From the NCBI RefSeq assembly GCF_044704955.1, contig NC_091992.1, positions 126,914,001 to 126,978,000 on the forward strand: 64,000 bases of DNA, in the 5' to 3' direction. A program made the position numbers and the translations under genes. The DNA is from Pristiophorus japonicus. Taxonomy: Eukaryota. This document shows, one piece after another, positions 15,120 to 45,320 of the stretch. The notes under the pieces were generated by a model that saw only the letters and a program-made list of their open reading frames with translations, did not search any database and was not told the origin of the DNA. Position 1 is the stretch's first letter. The number at the start of each line of letters is the position of its first letter.

Positions 15120-18100
15120 GAATTCTCATCCTTGTTTACAAATCCCTCCATGGCCTCGCTCCTTCCTTTCTCTAATCTCCTCTAGCCCCACAACCCCCCG
15201 AGATGTCTGTGCTCCTCTAATTCTGCCCTCTTGAGCATCCCTGATTATAATCGCTCACCTATTGGTGGCTGTGCCTTCTGTTGCCTGGGCCCCAAGCTCT
15301 GGAACTCCCTGCCTAAACCTCTCTACCTCTCTCTCCTCCTTTAAGATGCTCTGTAAAACATTCAGGAAAGATAGAATAAAAGGAAAAGGAGGTGGGGTAG
15401 CATTGCTGGTTAAGGAGGAAATTAAGGCAATAGTTCGGAAGGACATTAGCTTGGATGATGTGGAATCTATATGGGTAGAGCTGCAGAACACCAAAGGGCA
15501 AAAAACGTTAGTGGGAGTTGTGTACAGACCTCCAAACAGTAGTAGTGATGTTGGGGAGGGCATCAAACATGAAATTAGGGGTGCGTGCAATAAAGGTGCA
15601 GCAGTTATAATGGGTGACTTTAATATGCACATAGATTGGGCTAACCAAACTGGAAGCAATACGGTGGAGGAGGATTTCCTGGAGTGCATAAGGGATGGTT
15701 TTTTTAGACCAATATGTCGAGGAACCAACTAGGGGGGAAGCCATCTTAGACTGGGTGTTGTGTAATGAGAGAGGATTAATTAGCAATCTCGTTGTGCGAG
15801 GCCCCTTGGGGAAGAGTGACCATAATATGGTGGAATTCTGCATTAGGATTGGCTAATTAATCTGAAGGGGTTGACTGTGGATGGGCAATGGCAGACATTT
15901 AGAGACCGCATGGATGAACTACAACAATTGTACATTCCTGTCTGGCGTAAAAATAAAAAAGGGAAGGTGGCTCAACCATGGCTATCAAGGGAAATCGGGG
16001 ATAATATTAAAGCCAAGGAAGTGGCATACAAATTGGCCAGAAATAGCAGCGGACTGGGAGAAATTTAGAACTCAGCAGAGGAGGACAAAGGGTTTGATTA
16101 GGGCAGGGAAAATGGAGTACGAGAAGAAGCTTGCAGGGAACATTAAGACGGATTGCAAAAGTTTCTATAGATATGTAAAGAGAAAAAGGTTAGTAAAGAC
16201 AAACGTAGGTCCCCTGCAGTCAGAATCAGGGGAAGTCATAACGGGGAACAAAGAAATGGCGGACCAATTGAACAAGTACTTTGGTTCGGTATTTACTAAG
16301 GAGGACACAAACAACCTTCCGGATATAAAAGGGGTCGGAGGGTCTAGTAAGGAGGAGGAACTGAGGGAAATCCTTATTAGTCGGGAAATTGTGTTGGGGA
16401 AATTGATGGGATTGAAGGCCGATAAATCCCCAGGGCCTGATGGACTGCATCCCAGAGTACTTAAGGAGGTGGCCTTGGAAATAGTGGCTGCATTGACAGT
16501 CATTTTCCAACATTCCATTGACTCTGGATCAGTTCCTATGGAGTGGAGGGTAGCCAATGTAACCCCACTTTTTAAAAAAGGAGGGAGAGAGAAAACAGGG
16601 AATTATAGACCGGTCAGCCTGACATCGGTAGTGGGTAAAATGATGGAATCAATTATTAAGGATGTCATAGCGGTGCATTTGGAAAGAGGTGATATGATAG
16701 GTCCAAGTCAGCATGGATTTGTGAAAGGGAAATCATGCTTGACAAATCTTCTGGAATTTTTTGAGGATGTTTCCAGTAGAGTGGACAAGGGAGAACCAGT
16801 TGATGTGGTATATTTGGACTTTCAGAAGGCTTTCAACAAGGTCCCACACAAGAGATTAATGTGCAAAGTTAAAGCACATGGGATTGGGGGTAGTGTGCTG
16901 ACATGGATTGAGAACTGGTTGTCAGACAGGAAGCAAAGAGTAGGAGTAAATGGGTACTTTTCAGAATGGCAGGCAGTGACTAGTGGGGTACCGCAAGGTT
17001 CTGTGCTGGGGCCCCAGCTGTTTACACTGTACATTAATGATTTAGACGAGGGGATTAAATGTAGTATCTCCAAATTTGTGGATGACACTAAGTTGGGTGG
17101 CAGTGTGAGCTGCGAGGAGGATGCTATGAGGCTGCAGAGCGACTTGGATAGGTTAGGTGAGTGGGCAAATGCATGGCAGATGAAGTATTATGTGGATAAA
17201 TGTGAGGTTATCCACTTTGGTGGTAAAAACAGAGAGAATGGTGACAGATTAGGAAAAGGAGAGGTGCAAAGAGACCTGGGTGTCATGGTACATCAGTCAT
17301 TGAAGGTTGGCATGCAGGTTCAGCAGGCAGTTAAGAAAGCAAATGGCATGTTGGCCTTCATAGCGAGGGGATTTGAGTGCAGGGGCAGGGAGGTGTTGCT
17401 ACAGTTGTACAGGGCCTTGGTGAGGCCACACCTGGAGTATTGTGTACAGTTTTGGTCTCCTAACTTGAGGAAGGACATTCTTGCTATTGAGGGAGTGCAG
17501 CGAAGGTTCACCAGACTGATTCCCGGGATGACGGGACTGACCTATCAAGAAAGACTGAATCAACTGGGCTTGTATTCACTGGAGTTCAGAAGAATGAGAG
17601 GGGACCTCATAGAAACGTTTAAAATTCTGATGGGGTTAGACAGGTTAGATGCAGGAAGAATGTTCCCAATGTTGGGGAAGTCCAGAACCAGGGGACACAT
17701 TCTAAGGATAAGGGGGAAGCCATTTAGGACCGAGATGAGGAGGAATTTCTTCACCCAGAGAGTGGTGAACCTGTGGAATTCTCTACCACAGAAAGTTGTT
17801 GAGGCCAATTCACTAAATATATTCAAAAGGAGTTAGATGAAGTCCTTACTACTAGGGGGATCAAGGGGTATGGTGAGAAAGCAGGAATGGGGTACTGAAG
17901 TTGCATGTTCAGCCATGAACTCATTGAATGGCGGTGCAGGCTAGAAGGGCCGAATGGCCTACTCCTGCACCTATTTTCTATGTTTCTATGTTTCTACCTC
18001 TTTGACCAAGCTTTTGGTCATCTGCTGTAATTTCTTATGACCCTGTGTTAAATATATTTGTTTTGTCTTATAATTCCCCTGTGAAGCGCCTTGGGACATT

Positions 18101-26920: not shown

Positions 26921-27116
26921 TGTTGTGTATCTGTAAAGCATGCACTCCCATGTTCCGCCACCAGGGAGCTCATCCCCTGAAGTCCCAAGGGATCCCAGCA
27001 TCCCTTGGGAGCACTGTATATAAGCCGGCCCCTAAGGCCTGTTCCTTATTAAAGACTGAGGTCACTGTTACTTTAACCTCCCTGTGTGCAGCCTCATCTG
27101 TGTTCGGAACACAATA
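26921..27116 (+). repeat. 5' LTR (196 bp)
   Basis: TGTTGTG...ACAATA; TATATAA box; lacks a 15-bp segment present in the 3' LTR. Confidence 0.95.
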
Positions 27117-30100
27117 ACTGGCGACGAGAATACAAATCCAACGCAGAGACGCAGCAAACTGTGAGCATCCTGGAGAAGTTCTCGGAGGGTGAGGACTGGG
27201 AAGCCTATGTCGAACGGCTAGACAAGTACTTTGTAGCCAACGAGCTGGACGGAGAAGGAAGCACTGCAAAAAGGAGAGTGGTCCTCCTCACAGTCTGCGG
27301 GGCACCGACCTACAGCCTCATGAAGAATCTTCTGGCTCCGGTGAAACCCACAGATAAGTCATATGAGGAGCTGTGTACACTGGTTCGGGAGCATCTTAAC
27401 CCGAGGGAGAGCATGCTGATGGCGAGGTATCGATTCTACACGTGCCAGCGATCTGAAGGTCAGGAAGTGGCGAGCTACGTTGCCGAGCTAAGGCGACTTG
27501 CAGGACAATGTGAGCTTGATGGCTACCTGGAGCAAATGCTCAGAGACTTTTTTGTACTGGGCATTGGCCATGAGACCATCCTACGAAAACATTTGACTGT
27601 AGAGACACCGACCCTCAATAAGGCCATTGCGATAGCACAGGCGTTTATGTCCACCAGTGATAACACCAAACAAATCTCTCAGCACACAAGTGCTAGCAAT
27701 GTTCATAAATTAACTGGGACTGTGTTTGCGAGCAGAAACGTACAGGGCAGAACTCATGAGTCTGCAACTGCCAGCAGGCCTCAGGTGACCCAGATGACTC
27801 AGCGTCCCCAACAAAGGATGAATGCAAGGCACTTTGCACCTTGTTGGCGTTGTGGAGGCTTCCATTCAGCCTATTCATGCCGCTTCAAAGGGTATGTTTG
27901 CAAGAGCTGTGGAACAATGGGGCACCTCCAACGAGCTTGCAAATGAGCTGCAAGCTCTGCAAAACCTGCTAACCACCACGTGGCAGAGGAAGATCGATCC
28001 ATGGTGGATCAAAGCAATTTCAAGCCTCAGAGAGAGGAGGCAGATGCTGAAGTACACGGCGTGCACACATTTTCAACGAAATGTCCACCTATAATGCTAA
28101 ACGTAAAATTGAATGGCTTACCCGTAGCCATGGAACTGGACACTGGCGCTAACCAATCCATCATGAGTAAAAAGATGTTCGAGAGACTGTGGTGCAACAA
28201 GGCACTCAGACCAGCCCTGAGCCCCATCCACACGAAACTGAGAACGTACACCAAAGAGCTTATTACTGTCCTGGCAGCGCCATGGTCAAGGTCACCTACG
28301 AGGGCACGGTGCACGAACTGCCACTCTGGATTGTCCCGGGCGATGGCCCCACACTGCTTGGAAGGAGCTGGCTGGGCAAAATCCGCTGGAACTGGGATGA
28401 CATCCGAGCACTATCACATGTCAATGAGGCCTCATGTACCCAGGTTCTTAACAAATTTCCTTCCCTTTTTGAGCCAAGCATTGGAAACTTTTCCGAGGTG
28501 AAGGTGCGGATCCACTCGGTCCCAGAGGCACGACCCATTCACCACAAGGCACGAGCGGTACCTCACATGAGGGAGAGAGTGGAAATCGAGCTGGACAGGC
28601 TGCAACGCAAGGGCATCATCTCCCCAGTGGAATTCAGCGAGTGGGCCAGCCCGATTGTTCCAGTACTCAAAAGTGATGGCACGGTCAGGATTTGCGGCGA
28701 TTATAAAGTAACTATTAATCATTTCTCGCTGCAGGAACAATACCCGCTACCTAAGGCAGACGACCTATTTGCGACGCTGGCAGGAGGCAAGACGTTCACC
28801 AAGCTTGACCTGACTTCGGCCTACATGACGCAGGAGCTGGAAGAGTCTTCGAAGGGCCTCACCTGCATCAACACGCACAAGGGACTGTTCATCTTCAACA
28901 GATGCCCGTTTGGAATTCGGTCGGCTGCAACGATCTTCCAGAGAAACAAGGAGAGCCTACTCAAGTCAGTACCACACACGGTGGTCTTTCAGGACGATAT
29001 ATTGGTCACGGGTCGGGACATCGCCGAGCACCTACAAAACTTGGAGGAGGTCCTCCAGCGACTGGATCGCGTAGGGCTGCGACTGAAGAGATCGAACTGC
29101 ATCTTCATGGCAACAGAAGTGGAGTTTTTGGGGAGAAAGATCGCGGCGGACGGCATTCGGCCCACAGACGCCAAGACAGAGACTATCAGGAACGCGCCCA
29201 GGCCACAGAACGTCACGGAGCTGCGGTCGTTCCTGGGACTCCTCAACTATTTTGGTAACTTCCTACCGGGGTTAAGCACCCTCTTAGAGCCCCTACATGT
29301 GTTATTGCGCAAAGGTGAGAACTGGGTATGGGGAAGAAAACAAGTAATTGCTTTTGAGAAAGCCGGAAACATTTTATGCTCCAACAAGCTGCTTGTATTG
29401 TAAAACCCGTGTAAAAGACTTGTGCTAGCATGTGACGCGTCGTCGTACGGAGTCGGGTGTGTATTACAACAAGCTAACGTTGCGGGGAAGTTGCAACCTG
29501 TCGTCTATGCTTCCAGGAGCTTGTCTAAGGCCGAGAGGGCCTACAACATGATTGAGAAAGAGGCATTAGCGTGTGTGTTCGGGGTAAAGAAAATGCATCA
29601 GTACCTGTTTGGCCTCAAATTTGAGCTGGAAACCGATCACAAGCCCCTCACATCCCTGTTCACTGAAAACAAGGCGATAAATACTAATGCCTCAGCCCAT
29701 ACCATCCGCCACAGGCCAGGCACCGAGAACTGTGCGGATGCTCTCAGTCGGCTACCATTGCCCACCACAGGGGTGGAAATGGCGCAGCCTGCAAACTTGT
29801 TGATGGTGGCGCAGCCCGCAGACTTGTTGATGGTCATAGAAGCATTTGAAAATGATAAATCACCTGTCACGGCCCACCAGATTAGGACTTGGACCAGCCA
29901 AGATCCTCTGCTGTCCCTAGTAAAAAACTATGTACTGCATGGGAGCTGGGCCAGCATTCCCATTGAAATGCAAGAGCTAATCAAGCTGTTCCAGCGGCGA
30001 AAGGACGAGCTGTCCATTCAGGCAGACTGCCTGTTGTGAGGTAACCGCGTAGTGCGACCCAAAAAGGGCAGGGAGACGTTTATCTCGGATCTCCACAGCA

Positions 30101-31249
30101 CACACCCGGGTATAGTAATGATGAAAGCGATAGCCAGATCCCACATGTGGTGGCCCGGTATCGACTCTGACTTAGAGTCCTGTGTACGGCAATGCAGTGT
30201 GTGTGCTCAGTTGAGCAACGCGCCCAGAGAGGTACCAGTAACTTTGTGGTCCTGGCCCTCCAGACCATGGTCGAGGATCCATGTCGACTATGCAGGCCCG
30301 TTTCTCGGTAAAATGTTCCTGGTGGTGGTGGATGCTTTTTCAAAATGGATTGAATGTGAAATAATGTCGGGAAGCACCACCACTGAAAGCCTGAGGGCCA
30401 TGTTTGCCACCCACGGCCTGCCTGACATACTGGTCAGTGACAAAGGGCCATGTTTCACCAGTGCCGAATTTAAAGAATTCATGACCCGCAATGGGATCAA
30501 ACATGTCACCTCGGCCCCGTTTAAACCAGCCTCCAATGGGCAGGCAGAGCGGGCAGTACAAACCATCAAACAGAGCCTTAAACGAGTCGCAGAAGGCTCA
30601 CTCCAAACTCGCCTGTCCCGAGTACTGCTCAGCTACCGCACGAGACCCCACTCACTCACAGGGGTGCCCCCGGCTGAGCTACTCATGAAAAGGACACTTA
30701 AAACCAGACTCTCGCTGGTTCACCCCAACCTGCATGATCAGGTAGAGAGCAGGCGGCAGCAACAAAATGTAAACGATGGTCGCGCCACTGTGTCATGGGA
30801 AATTGATCTGAATGAACCGGTGTATGTGCTAAACTATGGACATGGTCCCAAGTGGATCGCGGGCACGGTGATAGCTAAAGAAGGGAGTAGGGTGTTTGTA
30901 GTCAAACTAGACAATGGACAAATTTGCAGAAAGCACCTGGACCAAACGAGGCTGCGGTTCACAGACTGCCCTGAACAACCCACAGCAGACACCACCTTTT
31001 TCGAGCCCACAACACACACCCAAAGGATCAACGACACCACGCCGGACCAGGAAATCGAACCCATCACGCCCAACAGCTCAGCAAGGCCAGGCTCACCCAG
31101 CAGCCCTGCAGGGCCAACAAAACGCCAGCCCAGCGAGGGCACAGCCAACACACCAGAACAGACATTTGTACCGAGGCGGTCCACCAGGGAAAGAAAGGCT
31201 CCCGACCGCCTCACCTTGTAAATAGTTTTCACTCTGACTTTTGGGGGGG

Positions 31250-38918: not shown

Positions 38919-39493
38919 TCACAGCTCGTTGTGCAGGGGTCTGCACTGAGGGTCCAGTTTATAAGGCCCTTGGTCTTCCAACACTCCGTCTGGGGCACAC
39001 ACCCAGGGGTCGTAGGTCATCCACTGCCACTTCCTCAGGCGCCCCCTCATGTCCTCCAGCAGGGCCCCATACCGCGGGTCCGAGGCCAGGTTACGGGTCT
39101 CAGCCGGGTCCTCCCCAGTGTCGAAGAGCTCCCAGCGCGACCTGTAGTAATACTGGTGCAGGGTCTTGTCCCAGTGGGTCGGCCGGCCGGACTGCGTCCT
39201 GTTCAACAGGTCCTGAAAGGTGGGCGAGAGATAAAAGTCCTGGTCGATGGGGAAAGGCATCTTGAAGTGAATGTTATGGACCAGTCGGTACTGCAGGTAA
39301 TACACGGCTCTCATGGGGTAATACATGGTGACCTCGTGGTGACTCTGACTGGCAAACACGGTGGACCAGGCCTGCTCACAGTGCAGTGCTGGGAGAATGG
39401 ACCTCCCGGTCAGCTGTACCAGCTGCTCCTTTCCGAAGATGCTGTAGGTGGGGTAAGGGATGGAGAACCAGTCCAGAATCGTCGGGGTTATAT
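38919..39493 (-). CDS. sgsh: N-sulphoglucosamine sulphohydrolase exon 8 ([10 protein letters not shown]...[10 protein letters not shown])
   Basis: CTGCAG acceptor; [14 protein letters not shown] and [12 protein letters not shown] motifs; TGA at 38919-21. Confidence 0.97.
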
Positions 39494-40547
39494 CTGCAGA
39501 GATAAACAATAAGGATTGGTTCCATTCCCATTTCAATATTCTCTCTCTCTTTCCTGAAGGGGGCGACTCTTCCCAGCGCAGGTCCCAGCGGCTCGTTGTA
39601 CAAGTGACCGGTCAACATGGGAGCCTCGGCAGTGAGCCAGGCCCTGCTGGCAAAGCTCGCTGCTCAGATAGCAAGCAGCATTGCTCACCGGTGCCCCACC
39701 TAGTCCCAACCCCCCTGACCTCCCCCCCAACCCCCCCCGACCCCAAACCCCTGGACCTCCTCATCCCCCGCCGACCCCGACCCCCTCATCCCCCACCAAC
39801 CCCAGGCCGACACCAACGACCCCCCTCGACCCCAACCCCCTGGACCCAGGCCCCCCCTCATCCCCCGCCGACCCCAACCCCTGCTAGACCCCAATGACTC
39901 CAGCCCTACCCCAGCGACCCCCCCCCCCCCCGACCCCAGCCACCCCCCCGACCCCAGCGACCCCCGAGACCCAGGCCGATCCTCTCATTCCCGCCGACCT
40001 CAGGCCAACCCCAATCCCTGCCCGACCCCAACGACCCCAGCCTGACCCCCAACGATCCCAGCCCTATCCCAACGACCCCCCCGACCCCTTTGCTTCATCA
40101 TTGAGACAGTCGACCTTTAAACGTTGAACACAATGTCCTTCTCTGGACTGCCCGTGCCCGGTGTCCAGGAGGATGCTGATCCTGAAGGCGCTTGCTGTCA
40201 CCGTCACCAGGCCACGAGCCTCCCCGTTCCTCACCCCATTGGCCATTCTTCACCCGAGAGCATGGAGGGTGAACGTCAGCAGGATATTCGACTACAGCAG
40301 GCAGAAGGAGGGGGAGGATGAAGGGCGGGGGGGGGGGGGGGAAGAGAGGCTGGGGTGGGGAAGGAAGAGGATGAGGAGTGGGGGGGGGGGGGGGAAGGGC
40401 CTGGGGTGGGGGGAGGGGGAAGGGCGAGAGGGAGGAGAAGGGGAGGAGAGGCTGGGGCAGAGGGCGAGGACGAGGGGCCGGTGGGTTGAACCCAAGGTGA
40501 GGCTTTAAGACGCAGTTATTGCTGACAGGCCAAGAGCCGCTGCTTAC

Positions 40548-40751
40548 CCAGTAAGGTGACGTATGATTGGCTGACTTGCCCCCAGCGCCCAGCGTGCTCT
40601 GGCGAGTGGACGAGCATGGGCTCTGCGATGCCCGAGCGGTACAGGTTGGTCCGTCCATTGGGGAAGGGGATCCCGTTATCAGAGCTGTAAATCACCAGCG
40701 TGTCATTGGCATGGCCAGCCTCCCTCAGCTCGCTCAGCACCAGCCCGATCC
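40548..40751 (-). CDS. sgsh: sgsh exon 7 ([13 protein letters not shown]...[16 protein letters not shown]...YVTLL)
   Basis: AG/GT boundaries; 204 nt; sulfatase SDNG metal-binding motif. Confidence 0.97.
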
Positions 40752-41097
40752 CTGAACACAGTTCAAAAGGAGAGATGTGGTCAGAAGGGGGCCTTTCGGC
40801 CCATCGTGCCTGTGGTGGAGCTCCCCAGTTAGTCCCACTCCCCCCTACTCTTTCCCCACAGCCCTGCAAGAGAGAGTTGGAACCCCTCATATTATATTTA
40901 CACACACACACATCATCATTCAACACCCAACGTAAGAGAAATGCTGGGGGAGGCCTCGATGGTCAGGGTTCATGTTGCTAGGTCTGTGGGTTACCTGAAC
41001 AGCACCATTTCCCACTGACATTGTGCCAAGGGGCCTACTCACAGCCCGTGTGTCAGTCGAATCCAACGCACAGTTTGAGAGCCGGGTCTGAGCCTGG

Positions 41098-43072
41098 TGT
41101 AATGTATGTACCTGCGAGTATGCTCACAGGTTTGTAGAGCTGTTGACTCCCCTTTTATAGGGGGCACTTGTAAAATATATGATTTTAAAGCCCCCCCAAA
41201 AAAAACACAAAAAACCCCCCCAAAAAAAGGGCATTTGAAAAGTGTCTAGAGTGTCCCACAGATCGGGGTCACTTGAGTTAATTGTTTAATTTGCAACCAA
41301 CCAAAAGAGTTGTAGAGCTGTTGAAGGGCAGTTGAAAACATAGAAACGTAGAAAAGTGTTTGTAGTGTCCCCCAGATCGGGGGGGCACTTGATTTAACTG
41401 TTATTTTCATTTTCAGCCAAAAAGAGTTGTAGAACTGTTGATCTACCAGTCCGCTCGCGGCCTTCCGCGGGAGGTGGATGCCGGCGGGACTGGAGTGCAT
41501 CATCACCCCCGGCAACCACATTTTAATTTGATTGTATATGTCTAAAGTTTGATTTGTTTAATTTGCCGGTTTTAGTGCCCCTCCCCTTTTAGCCAGGGGG
41601 TACTTGTATAATTTGTTTTTCGGTGCTCCCTGAAAAAAAAAGCAAAAAAAAAACCAAAGGGGGCACTTGTTTGAAAATGTTTGGAGTGTCCCCCTCCCTT
41701 AAGGGAAGCACTTGATTTAATTGATTTATTTGTCTTGAACCGCGGTTTTGGGTGGCGGTCGGACGAGAGGGCTGTGTTTGGCGAGGTGACCAGGGTCAGG
41801 GACCTGCTCGATGGCGGAGGAGCGGGCTGGATGGCACCGGACATGCTGGCATGGTGCCTATCCTGGGCCGACATCCGCCGCGCGGCCGATGCCATCGAGT
41901 CGCTAAAAACAGCTCTGGGCCCCGACTCCGTTAGGTGCGTCGAGGAGGCTCAAGCACGCGGGGCGATCCCGTCCGAACTGACCCCCCATCTGGACGGAAT
42001 TCCTCATCGGCGCCAAACCCCGGAACCTCCCTCGGGAGCCGGCGCCTCACAACTTGAGCCGCCTCGGGGAAATCCCCTCCTTGCCTTTCAGTTCTGCGCG
42101 GAGGCGTTTCCTGTACGGGCTGCTCCTGCACACTCTCCACTTTGCCATCCTCGTCTGCCGTCCGGACACGCCATGGCGCACCATCTTGCCGTCCGAAGGA
42201 GGCGGGGGTCCCCGATGGATTGCTGTCTGTGCGGGAGTCCTCCCTCTATATATTGGGGACTTGGCCCGGAGGGTATTGCACGGACCAGTCACGTGCAATA
42301 GGTTTTTAAGTCGGTTCACGGACTCCCAGGCCGCCAGCAACTTCTGCAGTCTAGAGGAGTCCGTGTTCCATATTTATGTTGAACGTGCGAGGTTGCAGCC
42401 CCTGTTCCATTACTTGAAGGGGCTGCTCCTCAAATTCTGGTTGCACTTCAGTCCCACACTCCTGATCTTTGGGCACCCTGTGCGGAGGGGAGCGGGTAGG
42501 TCCGAGGGCCTCCTCGTAGGACTGCTCCTGGGCACGGCCAAGGGTGCCATCAGCCGGTCCAGGCAACGGGCGGTCGAGGGGGTCGTTCAGCCCGACTGCC
42601 GTCCTCTCTTCCGCGGTTACATCCGAGCCACGGTGTCCCTGGAGATGAAGCACGCGGTGTCCACCGGTACGCTCGCGGCATTCCGCGAGAGGTGGGCGCC
42701 GGAGGGACTGGAGTGCATCATCACCCCCGGCAATCAAATTTTAATTTGATTCATTTAATGTCCAAAGTTAATTGTTAATTTGTCGGTTCTAATGCCCCTG
42801 TTAAGGAGGCAGTTGATTTCTAGTTTATTTAAAATAGTTGCAGAGCTGTTGAATTGGGAGTGGCTTAGCCAGTCATGTGATGTTCATAAGACTCAATAAA
42901 ACCCCAGCCAGTTGGGTTCAGGGGGTCCACGATGAGGCAGGTGGTTGTGAGCCTGGTGGATGAACTGGTAATGTGTCGTGTGATTGTTAAACCTTTGTTA
43001 ATAAACCAACTAGTTCTCAGTAGTGTTGCTATGAATTATTCGGCAAAGAACCCATGAAGCAAATACATGATA
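41098..43072 (+). mobile_element. Solo LTR (parts 41098-41146 and 42838-43072) split by stacked Tx1 insertions
   Basis: Imperfect inverted termini TGTAATGTAT...ATACATGATA; flanks CCTGG / GCTGG (4 of 5 TSD match); AATAAA motifs in the right part. Confidence 0.7.
41147..42837 (+). mobile_element. Tx1-clade (L1 group) non-LTR retrotransposon 3' fragments, 3-4 in tandem
   Basis: ORF 42054-42749 (CSLEESVFHIYVE zinc-knuckle remnant ... WAPEGLECIITPGNQILI) resembles a Tx1 ORF2 C-terminus; the same ORF end recurs at ~41445-41530; homologous 3'UTR tails end AAAAGAG / AAAATAG. Confidence 0.82.
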
Positions 43073-43179
43073 GCTGGGAATCCCGCGGAGTGCGCTCCAG
43101 CTTCCAGTCACAGTACCGTGGGACCCGTGACAAGTGAAGGTCAGGAACACGCGACAGGAGAGGATTAAAATACCACAGT

Positions 43180-44060
43180 GGTGTCAGCCATGGCTCAGTG
43201 GGTAGCCCGCTCGCGCCTCTGAGTCAGAAGGTTGTGGGGTCAAGCCCCACTCCAGGGACTTGTGCACAAAAGTCCAGGCTCACACTCCAGTGCAGTGCTG
43301 AGGGAGTGCTGCACTGTCAGAGGTCTCGTCTGTTGGATGAGACGTTAAACCGAGGCCCTGTCTGCGCTCTCAGGTGGAGGTACAACAGTGACTACACTCC
43401 AAAAGTACTTCATTGGCTGTAAAGCGCTTTGAGACGTCCGCTGGTCCTGAAAGGCGCTATATAAATGCAAGTCTTTCTTTCTATTCCCTTTCTATATTAA
43501 GTAGACTGGGTGAGACAGTGCTACAACTCGCTGCAAATCCCCGAATGGTGGCAATCGGGCTCTGACCCCAGGCCTGGCTCTACTCCCACTCTGGGATTCT
43601 CACCCCGTACCACCTCCAACAACTTAAGAGCATCACCGCTGTTTTCCTGGCCGATCTTGACCATATTGTATGACCAACAACCACCATCTTTTTAAGCCGT
43701 GGCTCAGTGGGCAGCACACTCCCCTCCGAGTCAGAAGGTTGTGGGTTCAAGTCCCACTCCAGGAACTGGAGCACATAAATCTAGGCTGACACTCCCAGTG
43801 CAGTGCTGAGGGAGCGCCACACTGTCGGAGGTGCCGTCTTTCAGATGAGACGTCAAACCGAGGTCCTGTCTGCTCTCTCAGGTGGACGTAAAAGATCCCA
43901 CGGCACTATTTCGAAGAGGAGCAGGGGAGTTATCCCCGGTGTCCTGGTCAATATTTATCCCTCAGCCAACATGGGAAGAACAAATTATATTTTTGTGGGA
44001 GCTTGCTGTGCACAAATTGGTGGCTGTGTTTCCTACATTACAACAGTGACTACACTCCAA
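43180..44060 (+). mobile_element. Two DeuSINE copies (~43180-43480, ~43695-44060)
   Basis: A/B boxes and central domain in each. Confidence 0.85.
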
Positions 44061-44164
44061 ATGGGTTGGGACATCATGAGATCAAGAATAGTGCGAAATA
44101 AAGTTATTCCTTTTTTTCTAACTGTTCCATTCCCCAGGGCTAACACCCTCACCTTATTGTGGTG

Positions 44165-45320
44165 TACTTGGTCTAGACGGCCAATGGTGGTATACTGGGA
44201 GCTTACCTTGGTCTAGACGGCCAATGGCGGTGTACTGGGAGCTTACCTTGGTCCAGACAGCTGATGGTGGTATACTGGGAGCTTACCTTGGTCTAGACGG
44301 CCAATGGCGGTGTACTGGGAGCTTACCTTGGTCTAGCCGGCTAACCATGGTGTACTGGGAGCTTACCTTGGTCCAGACAGCTGATGGTGGTGTACTGAGA
44401 GCTTACCTTGGTCTAGACGGCCAATGGCGGTGTACTGGGAGCTTACCTCGGTCTAGACAGCTGATGGTGGTGTACTGGGAGCTTACCTTGGTCTAGACGG
44501 CCAATGGCGGTGTACTGGGAGCTTACCTTGGTCTAGACGGCTGATGGTGGTGTACTGGGAGCTTACCTTGGTCTAGACGGCTGATGGTGGTGTACTGGGA
44601 GCTTACCTTGGTCTAGACGGCCAATGGCGGTGTACTGGGAGCTTACCTCGGTCTAGACAGCTGATGGTGGTGTACTGGGAGCTTACCTTGGTCTAGACGG
44701 CCAATGGCGGTGTACTGGGAGCTTACCTTGGTCTAGACGGCTGATGGTGGTGTACTGGGAGCTTACCTTGGTCTAGACGGCTGATGGTGGTGTACTGGGA
44801 GCTTACCTTGGTCTAGACGGCTGATGGTGGTGTACTGGGAGCTTACCTTGGTCTAGACGGCTGATGGTGGTGTACTGGGAGCTTACCTTGGTCTAGACGG
44901 CTGATGGTGGTGTACTGGGAGCTTACCTTGGTCTAGACGGCCAATGGCGGTGTACTGGGAGCTTACCTCGGTCTAGACAGCTGATGGTGGTGTACTGGGA
45001 GCTTACCTTGGTCTAGACGGCTGATGGTGGTGTACTGGGAGCTTACCTTGGTCTAGACGGCTGATGGTGGTGTACTGGGAGCTTACCTTGGTCTAGACGG
45101 CTGATTGTGGTGTACTGGGAGCTTACCTTGGTCTAGACGGCTGATGGTGGTGTACTGGGAGCTTACCTTGGTCTAGACGGCTGATGGTGGTGTACTGGGA
45201 GCTTACCTTGGTCTAGACGGCTGATGGTGGTGTACTGGGAGCTTACCTTGGTCTAGACGGCTGATGGTGGTGTACTGGGAGCTTACCTTGGTCTAGACGG
45301 CTGATGGTGGTGTACTGGGC
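44165..45320 (-). repeat. 40-bp minisatellite derived from the sgsh exon 6 end plus its splice donor
   Basis: Unit (+) GCTTACCTTGGTCTAGACGGCTGATGGTGGTGTACTGGGA; GCTTACC recurs every 40 nt from 44201 to 45281 (28 copies). Confidence 0.97.

Follow-up and report, generated by a model that had tools for sequence, protein, structure and literature searches.

Repeated insertion of a Tx1-clade LINE at one site of an LTR in the shark Pristiophorus japonicus, and the different targets of its sister subfamilies

A LINE of the Tx1 clade has inserted over and over at a single base inside the LTR of a retrotransposon in the genome of Pristiophorus japonicus. Exact counts give 2745 occupied and 1171 empty target sites, so that 70% are filled, and the genome-wide preference that had been proposed from one stretch of DNA holds. 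We put the probability that these are targeted, independent insertions at about 0.95. Such occupancy of a single base is striking, although targeting of LTRs is in itself a known habit. Two sister subfamilies of the element, B and C, insert elsewhere. The endonuclease domains of the three subfamilies are indistinguishable in sequence, yet their targets are three different ones. Target choice probably depends on two factors together, a relaxed endonuclease and RNA read through from the donor site.

Changes of target in site-specific LINEs are usually put down to evolution of the endonuclease. They are hard to test, as the known site-specific families are far apart. Here, three subfamilies are ~95% identical in the endonuclease and one copy (L145) has open reading frames, which makes the question of target choice directly testable. 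If the RNA tail decides, targets could be switched without protein change; this would explain the many targets of the Tx1 clade and would bear on programmable LINE insertion.

A stack of four Tx1 ends in one LTR

The window (the whole stretch of 64,000 nucleotides that was analyzed) contains a solo LTR broken up by Tx1 fragments. An earlier reading of the letters alone, hereafter the sequence-only reading, had seen the 15-mer TTG(T/C)AGA(G/A)CTGTTGA four times, and exact matches at 41132, 41310, 41427 and 42838 of the window agree. This is far above chance: the expected mean is 0.53 even with two mismatches allowed, and none of 100 shuffles reaches at least five. Between the 15-mers lie four Tx1 3' fragments, and the stack reads as follows.

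41093-41097, plus strand: 5' copy (CCTGG) of the 5-bp flanking duplication, matching the 3' copy GCTGG at 4 of 5 positions; perfect at other copies of the LTR
41098-41131, plus strand: first 34 nt of the solo LTR, classed as Gypsy-type; recognized from empty copies, and follows the polypurine tract in two-LTR elements
41132-41146, plus strand: target copy 1, which retains the upstream flank of the LTR and was likely reused by later insertions (15-mer match, stack order)
41147-41309, plus strand: Tx1 insert 1, 3' UTR alone, ending in AAAAGAG (younger type)
41310-41324, plus strand: target copy 2 (15-mer match)
41325-41426, plus strand: Tx1 insert 2, 3' UTR alone, ending in AAAAGAG
41427-41441, plus strand: target copy 3 (15-mer match)
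41442-41734, plus strand: Tx1 insert 3, the last 29 codons of ORF2 (stop at 41529-41531) and the 3' UTR without its final ~29 nt
41735-41738, plus strand: TTGA, probably the remnant of a target copy after a deletion
41739-42837, plus strand: Tx1 insert 4, covering the C-terminal portion of ORF2, CCHC knuckle included (stop at 42747-42749)
42838-43072, plus strand: final target copy (42838-42852) and the remainder of the LTR, with AATAAA at 42895 and 43000
43073-43077, plus strand: 3' copy (GCTGG) of the 5-bp flanking duplication

Aligned with a full-length Tx1 copy that sits in an LTR, all four inserts fall at its 3' end, each with its own 5' truncation. They share 76-86% identity in their overlaps, one pair overlapping over just 17 nt. 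The sequence-only reading was right to see 3'-end fragments with distinct truncations, but its count fell short: the piece described as 290 bp fused to 1.1 kb consists of two insertions, insert 3 without its last ~29 nt and insert 4, with the TTGA remnant between them. The 3' UTR of insert 4 is short and ends in AAAATAG, the older type. With four truncation points and two types of 3' end, the proposal of repeated independent insertions at one regenerated site is upheld. The two pieces of the LTR (41098-41131 and 42838-43072) sum to 269 bp, and the insertion site is 34 nt inside. An Rfam search of positions 40000-44500 and a Pfam search of the window's own ORF2 fragments returned no match.

Other features surround the stack. 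Two tRNA-like SINE copies, which we take to be HE1-like, are located just downstream of the LTR (43186-43400 and 43695-43800). A frame on the minus strand (38922-39611) matches the sulfatase C-terminal domain (PF16347, E 6e-8); it is probably a host exon, and the stack may lie in or near a sulfatase gene. The plus strand also carries another, degraded Gypsy-type element at 26951-31221 (Pfam matches to gag, protease, RT, RNase H and integrase) and, at 15875-17836, an open frame of 653 codons with a LINE-type RT domain. A relative of this Gypsy-type element is nested antisense in the internal region of the target LTR family at one locus (L143).

The host LTR

A 32-nt pattern taken from the LTR has 3953 exact matches in the 5.9 Gb of genome searched. 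Empty copies run through the insertion site with the 15-mer in place, so the 15-mer is part of the LTR and does not belong to the Tx1 3' end. Several of them have perfect 5-bp flanking duplications, in line with the original description of a solo LTR with CCTGG/GCTGG flanks and AATAAA.

When the LTR end was searched together with TGG, a single spacer recurred, and AAATGG.. recurs after the 5' LTR. Twenty of these loci led to two-LTR elements. These have an internal region in common and carry a primer-binding site, with a purine tract ahead of the 3' LTR. One such element (L127) has CTGGC on both flanks and carries RNase H followed by integrase (PF17917/PF17919, then PF17921 and PF00665); the RT fragments of the host element gave no Pfam match. 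From this domain order we class the host LTR as probably Gypsy-type, as against BEL or a retrovirus, and we assume a likeness to the Mag clade. The idea that the 269-bp element is a non-autonomous DNA transposon was ruled out by the two-LTR elements, their internal region and the RNase H and integrase domains. The paired LTRs of three elements are 87.5-89.3% identical, and the LTR family is therefore old.

Occupancy of the target site

The first 30 LTR matches on one contig (C1) illustrate the pattern: 20 are filled at an identical position by Tx1 ends that vary in their 5' truncation, and 10 are empty. We also approached the site from the side of the element, using ORF2 ends of the LTR lineage taken in order of position. 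Their 3' flanks are mostly the LTR site: of 72 ends, 49 lie there or at a short copy of the target, while 18 are off-target, one is at a CR1-like site and four are unresolved. This hand tally is valid for the LTR lineage only, because the pattern misses most B and C copies; it exceeds the >20% of flanks in one repeat by which Kojima recognizes target-specific Tx1 families (PMC4494074).

All Tx1 copies end in AAAA(G/T)AG(T) and lack a poly(A) tail. The 5' junctions show a target length, including the first T, of 14-16 nt in 33 of 59 cases. Since junctions at other targets show an element that ends in AAAA(G/T)AGT, its last base is probably the T with which the 15-mer opens, and the target duplication amounts to ~13-14 bp. 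Each insertion thus duplicates ~13-14 bp and thereby regenerates the site.

Stacks that mix the two types of 3' end are ordered. In 13 of 14 such pairs the copy ending in AAAAGAG is on the 5' side of the one ending in AAAATAG (p=0.002), and divergence is greater among AAAATAG copies (within-group identity 89.9%, vs 92.8% for AAAAGAG). It follows that most new copies go into the left-hand target copy, the one with the upstream flank of the LTR. The stack in the window follows the same order, younger 5' of older. Among two-LTR elements, some carry an insert in one LTR alone or differing inserts in the two LTRs (L131, L136, L141, L143, L091/L092), so the Tx1 insertions postdate integration of the LTR element.

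An element of unrelated type, presumably RTE-like and with ATG repeats at its end, sits within a few bases of the target site at two loci (L007 and L144). Sequencing run X4 of a second organism (organism B) also holds this Tx1 family and this LTR, including the flank of the empty site. Among the matches listed, no contig with Tx1 and LTR from two runs (one of them from the second organism) bridged an occupied junction.

The Tx1 element and its sister subfamilies

Full-length LTR-inserted copies were found at four loci (L178, L180, L181 and L183); they are ~7.1 kb long and broken by mutations. LTR-type copies are ~87-90% identical over their full length to L145, a sister copy that belongs to the B/C-type arrays and has both ORFs open. 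ORF1 of this copy has a CCHC motif, and ORF2 has an APE endonuclease, an RT and a C-terminal zinc knuckle. Pfam recognizes the endonuclease (PF03372) and the RT (PF00078), with PF13966 and PF00098 below the curated cut-off. The assignment to the Tx1 clade is confirmed by ORF2, which is 49% identical to Xenopus Tx1L over 99%. Its closest proteins are from ray and shark (68-71%), and in a tree without an L1 outgroup it groups with ray, sturgeon, turtle and frog proteins.

The three subfamilies differ clearly in their 3' UTRs and in their targets. For B-type ends, 40 of 51 are at one antisense site in a CR1-like LINE and 11 are elsewhere; the B-type UTR has 1865 exact matches genome-wide. Of the C-type ends (513 UTR matches genome-wide), 24 of 30 occupy the homologous site in another CR1-like family; one more is at a variant of that site and one at the B site. 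None of the 81 sampled B and C ends, and hence none of either type, is at the LTR. In both CR1-like targets, LINE RT reading frames end at the same motif; these LINEs are presumably of CR1 type. One C-type copy (L334) sits at the B-type site with a junction one T shorter; another (L313) has gone into a third CR1-like family, again at the homologous position.

Identity within B and C is 94-97.5%, so these subfamilies are younger than the LTR type. The CR1-targeting copies (B and C) form one branch with support of 98/96, a bootstrap not fully settled, in a tree of 14 of the 29 B rows from which a duplicate row and a duplicate locus were removed. Sequence closely resembling the LTR target opens 15 of the 16 full-length B and C copies. 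This relic at the 5' end and the branch lengths point to the order LTR first, then C and B; a protein tree that included outgroups gave no resolved root.

Target choice

Off-target sites, read by hand, start with the first bases of each subfamily's own target. They begin with TG in 14 of 17 LTR-type vs none of 10 B-type cases (p=3e-5), with TTC in none of 17 vs 7 of 10, and with TC in all four C-type cases. The 14/17 tally leaves out one stack member (L196) and one copy whose UTR is not LTR-type (L251); two ends at L298 were counted once, as were L318 and L319. Where the 5' copy of the duplication is readable, it mostly carries the own-target bases too, and such sites were therefore selected. 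Relative to the nick, GG occupies positions -4 and -3 in all three targets, as it does at 5 of 18 off-target sites (p=0.009).

We propose that a shared, relaxed endonuclease would nick a loose context, often GG-N-N before a T. The transcript, lacking a poly(A) of its own, would continue past the element into the adjoining target copy; for insertions in the LTR, it would head for the LTR's AATAAA. Its read-through tail would then pair with the freed 3' end and prime reverse transcription. Priming by this tail would take progeny mainly to the parent's kind of site, so that the donor site passes on the target. By landing in a CR1-like repeat, one copy would have gained a new tail and given rise to the CR1-targeting lineages, while its 5' end kept the LTR relic. 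We consider it somewhat probable that the RNA tail is the deciding factor in target choice. More tentatively, and with a little less than even confidence, we suggest a natural RNA-programmed retargeting, in which one endonuclease serves three unrelated targets inside a single young Tx1 family, 13-14 nt of read-through act as a heritable guide and a single off-target landing founds a lineage. Related processes have been described: RNA-primer pairing operates in L1 priming ('snap-velcro', PMC3649969), pairing of the RNA 3' end with the target aids accurate priming in SART1Bm and R1Bm (PMC7265360), and the R1Bm endonuclease alone has a loose consensus (PMC1919474).

A change of protein could also shift the first bases of the off-target sites. 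Under this alternative, a few residues in the C-terminus of ORF2, in ORF1 or in the endonuclease were retuned from LTR to CR1, and the UTRs are lineage markers. Specificity determined by the endonuclease is the published model: a TRAS1/SART1 domain swap ties specificity to it, and that of Tx1L has been attributed to it (cited in PMC1919474). Candidate residues exist. Endonuclease residue 163 is near-diagnostic, being I in all 4 LTR copies and in 2 of the 16 remaining ones, and ORF2 residues outside the endonuclease show a strong, not absolute, link to lineage (1102 V/A, 1124 S/R, and 1180 A or V/T, which adjoins the zinc knuckle). ORF1 has two fixed differences between the lineages, and B differs from C at ORF2 827 and 920. 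However, the endonuclease domain has no fixed residue difference among 4 LTR, 11 B and 5 C full-length copies, the four LTR copies all bearing post-insertion mutations, and its identity is 94.8-95.4% between groups vs 94.9-96.9% within. The hairpin loop of two of the four LTR copies equals that of the CR1 copies, and the CR1-type residue 1180 T is present in 7 of 64 LTR-inserted copies. Poly(A)-tailed cargo is also absent from the LTR site genome-wide, where three matches proved to be two Tx1 ends and one A-run of other sequence. We regard protein-coded targeting as possible and rather doubtful. The endonuclease as sole explanation, as the sequence-only reading had it, is not supported, given the sister subfamilies, in which an indistinguishable domain goes with no sampled end at the LTR site.

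Alternatively, most of the stacking could stem from a single insertion that was multiplied locally, through tandem duplication or unequal crossing-over. Some arrays do suggest this. For instance, six stacked copies at L179 (G000:C3:90055900-90065700) have one common 5' truncation, two of them being sisters at 100/97, and three copies at L178 share a truncation at another point. Full-length 7.2-kb units of B and C type also form head-to-tail arrays with the target duplication as sole separator (L145, L147, L254-L257 and L327-L333 in G000). Similar truncation points recur at unrelated loci (L038, L039, L056), so local duplication and truncation hot spots are both likely at L178 and L179. For the window the picture differs, with its four truncation points, two 3'-end types and 76-86% identity. 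Duplication would account neither for the sorting of mixed stacks by age nor for lone insertions at an identical base across thousands of LTRs. The sequence-only reading had named local duplication of a single insertion as something that would refute it; in the window duplication is unlikely and is excluded as the main cause, and elsewhere it contributes to some arrays. As a general account of the stacks it is very improbable. That Gypsy amplified one Tx1-bearing LTR, or that Tx1 carried an LTR tail by 3' transduction, would give the same junction in all copies but scarcely merits belief, as each locus has its own 5' truncation, occupied LTRs retain both ends and their 5-bp flanking duplications, and inserts in only one LTR of two-LTR elements refute it.

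Comparison with known systems

A preference of Tx1 elements for LTR retrotransposons has precedents. The sequence-only reading knew of no described family with such a target, but two crocodilian Tx1 families, Tx1-8_Crp and Tx1-4_AMi, prefer specific groups of LTR retrotransposons (Kojima 2015, PMC4494074). LTR-preferring Tx1 elements are thus already described; new are this target and the recent three-way split of targets with an unchanged endonuclease. A literature search, with a coverage that lay outside most subscription journals and Repbase Reports, returned no account of this Tx1 family, of a CR1-targeting Tx1 or of such a switch.

The crocodilian families resemble the shark element, by description and not by sequence, as Tx1-clade LINEs that prefer LTR retrotransposons. 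They differ in that the accessible part of their account (PMC4494074) has no target switch with an unchanged endonuclease. Xenopus laevis Tx1L (YTX2_XENLA), to which L145 is related through ORF2, also targets another mobile element, in its case the DNA transposon Tx1D (PMC4494074). Tx1-Mar and SINEU-3 likewise have a transposon as target and copies often in tandem; however, their target is a Mariner and SINEs are mobilized (PMC4494074), whereas no poly(A) cargo was found at the LTR site in the shark. With R1Bm and SART1Bm of the R1 clade, and with L1, the proposed mechanism shares the pairing of the RNA 3' end with the nicked target (PMC7265360, PMC3649969). In those elements pairing improves accuracy at one target, whereas in the shark Tx1 it would decide among three.
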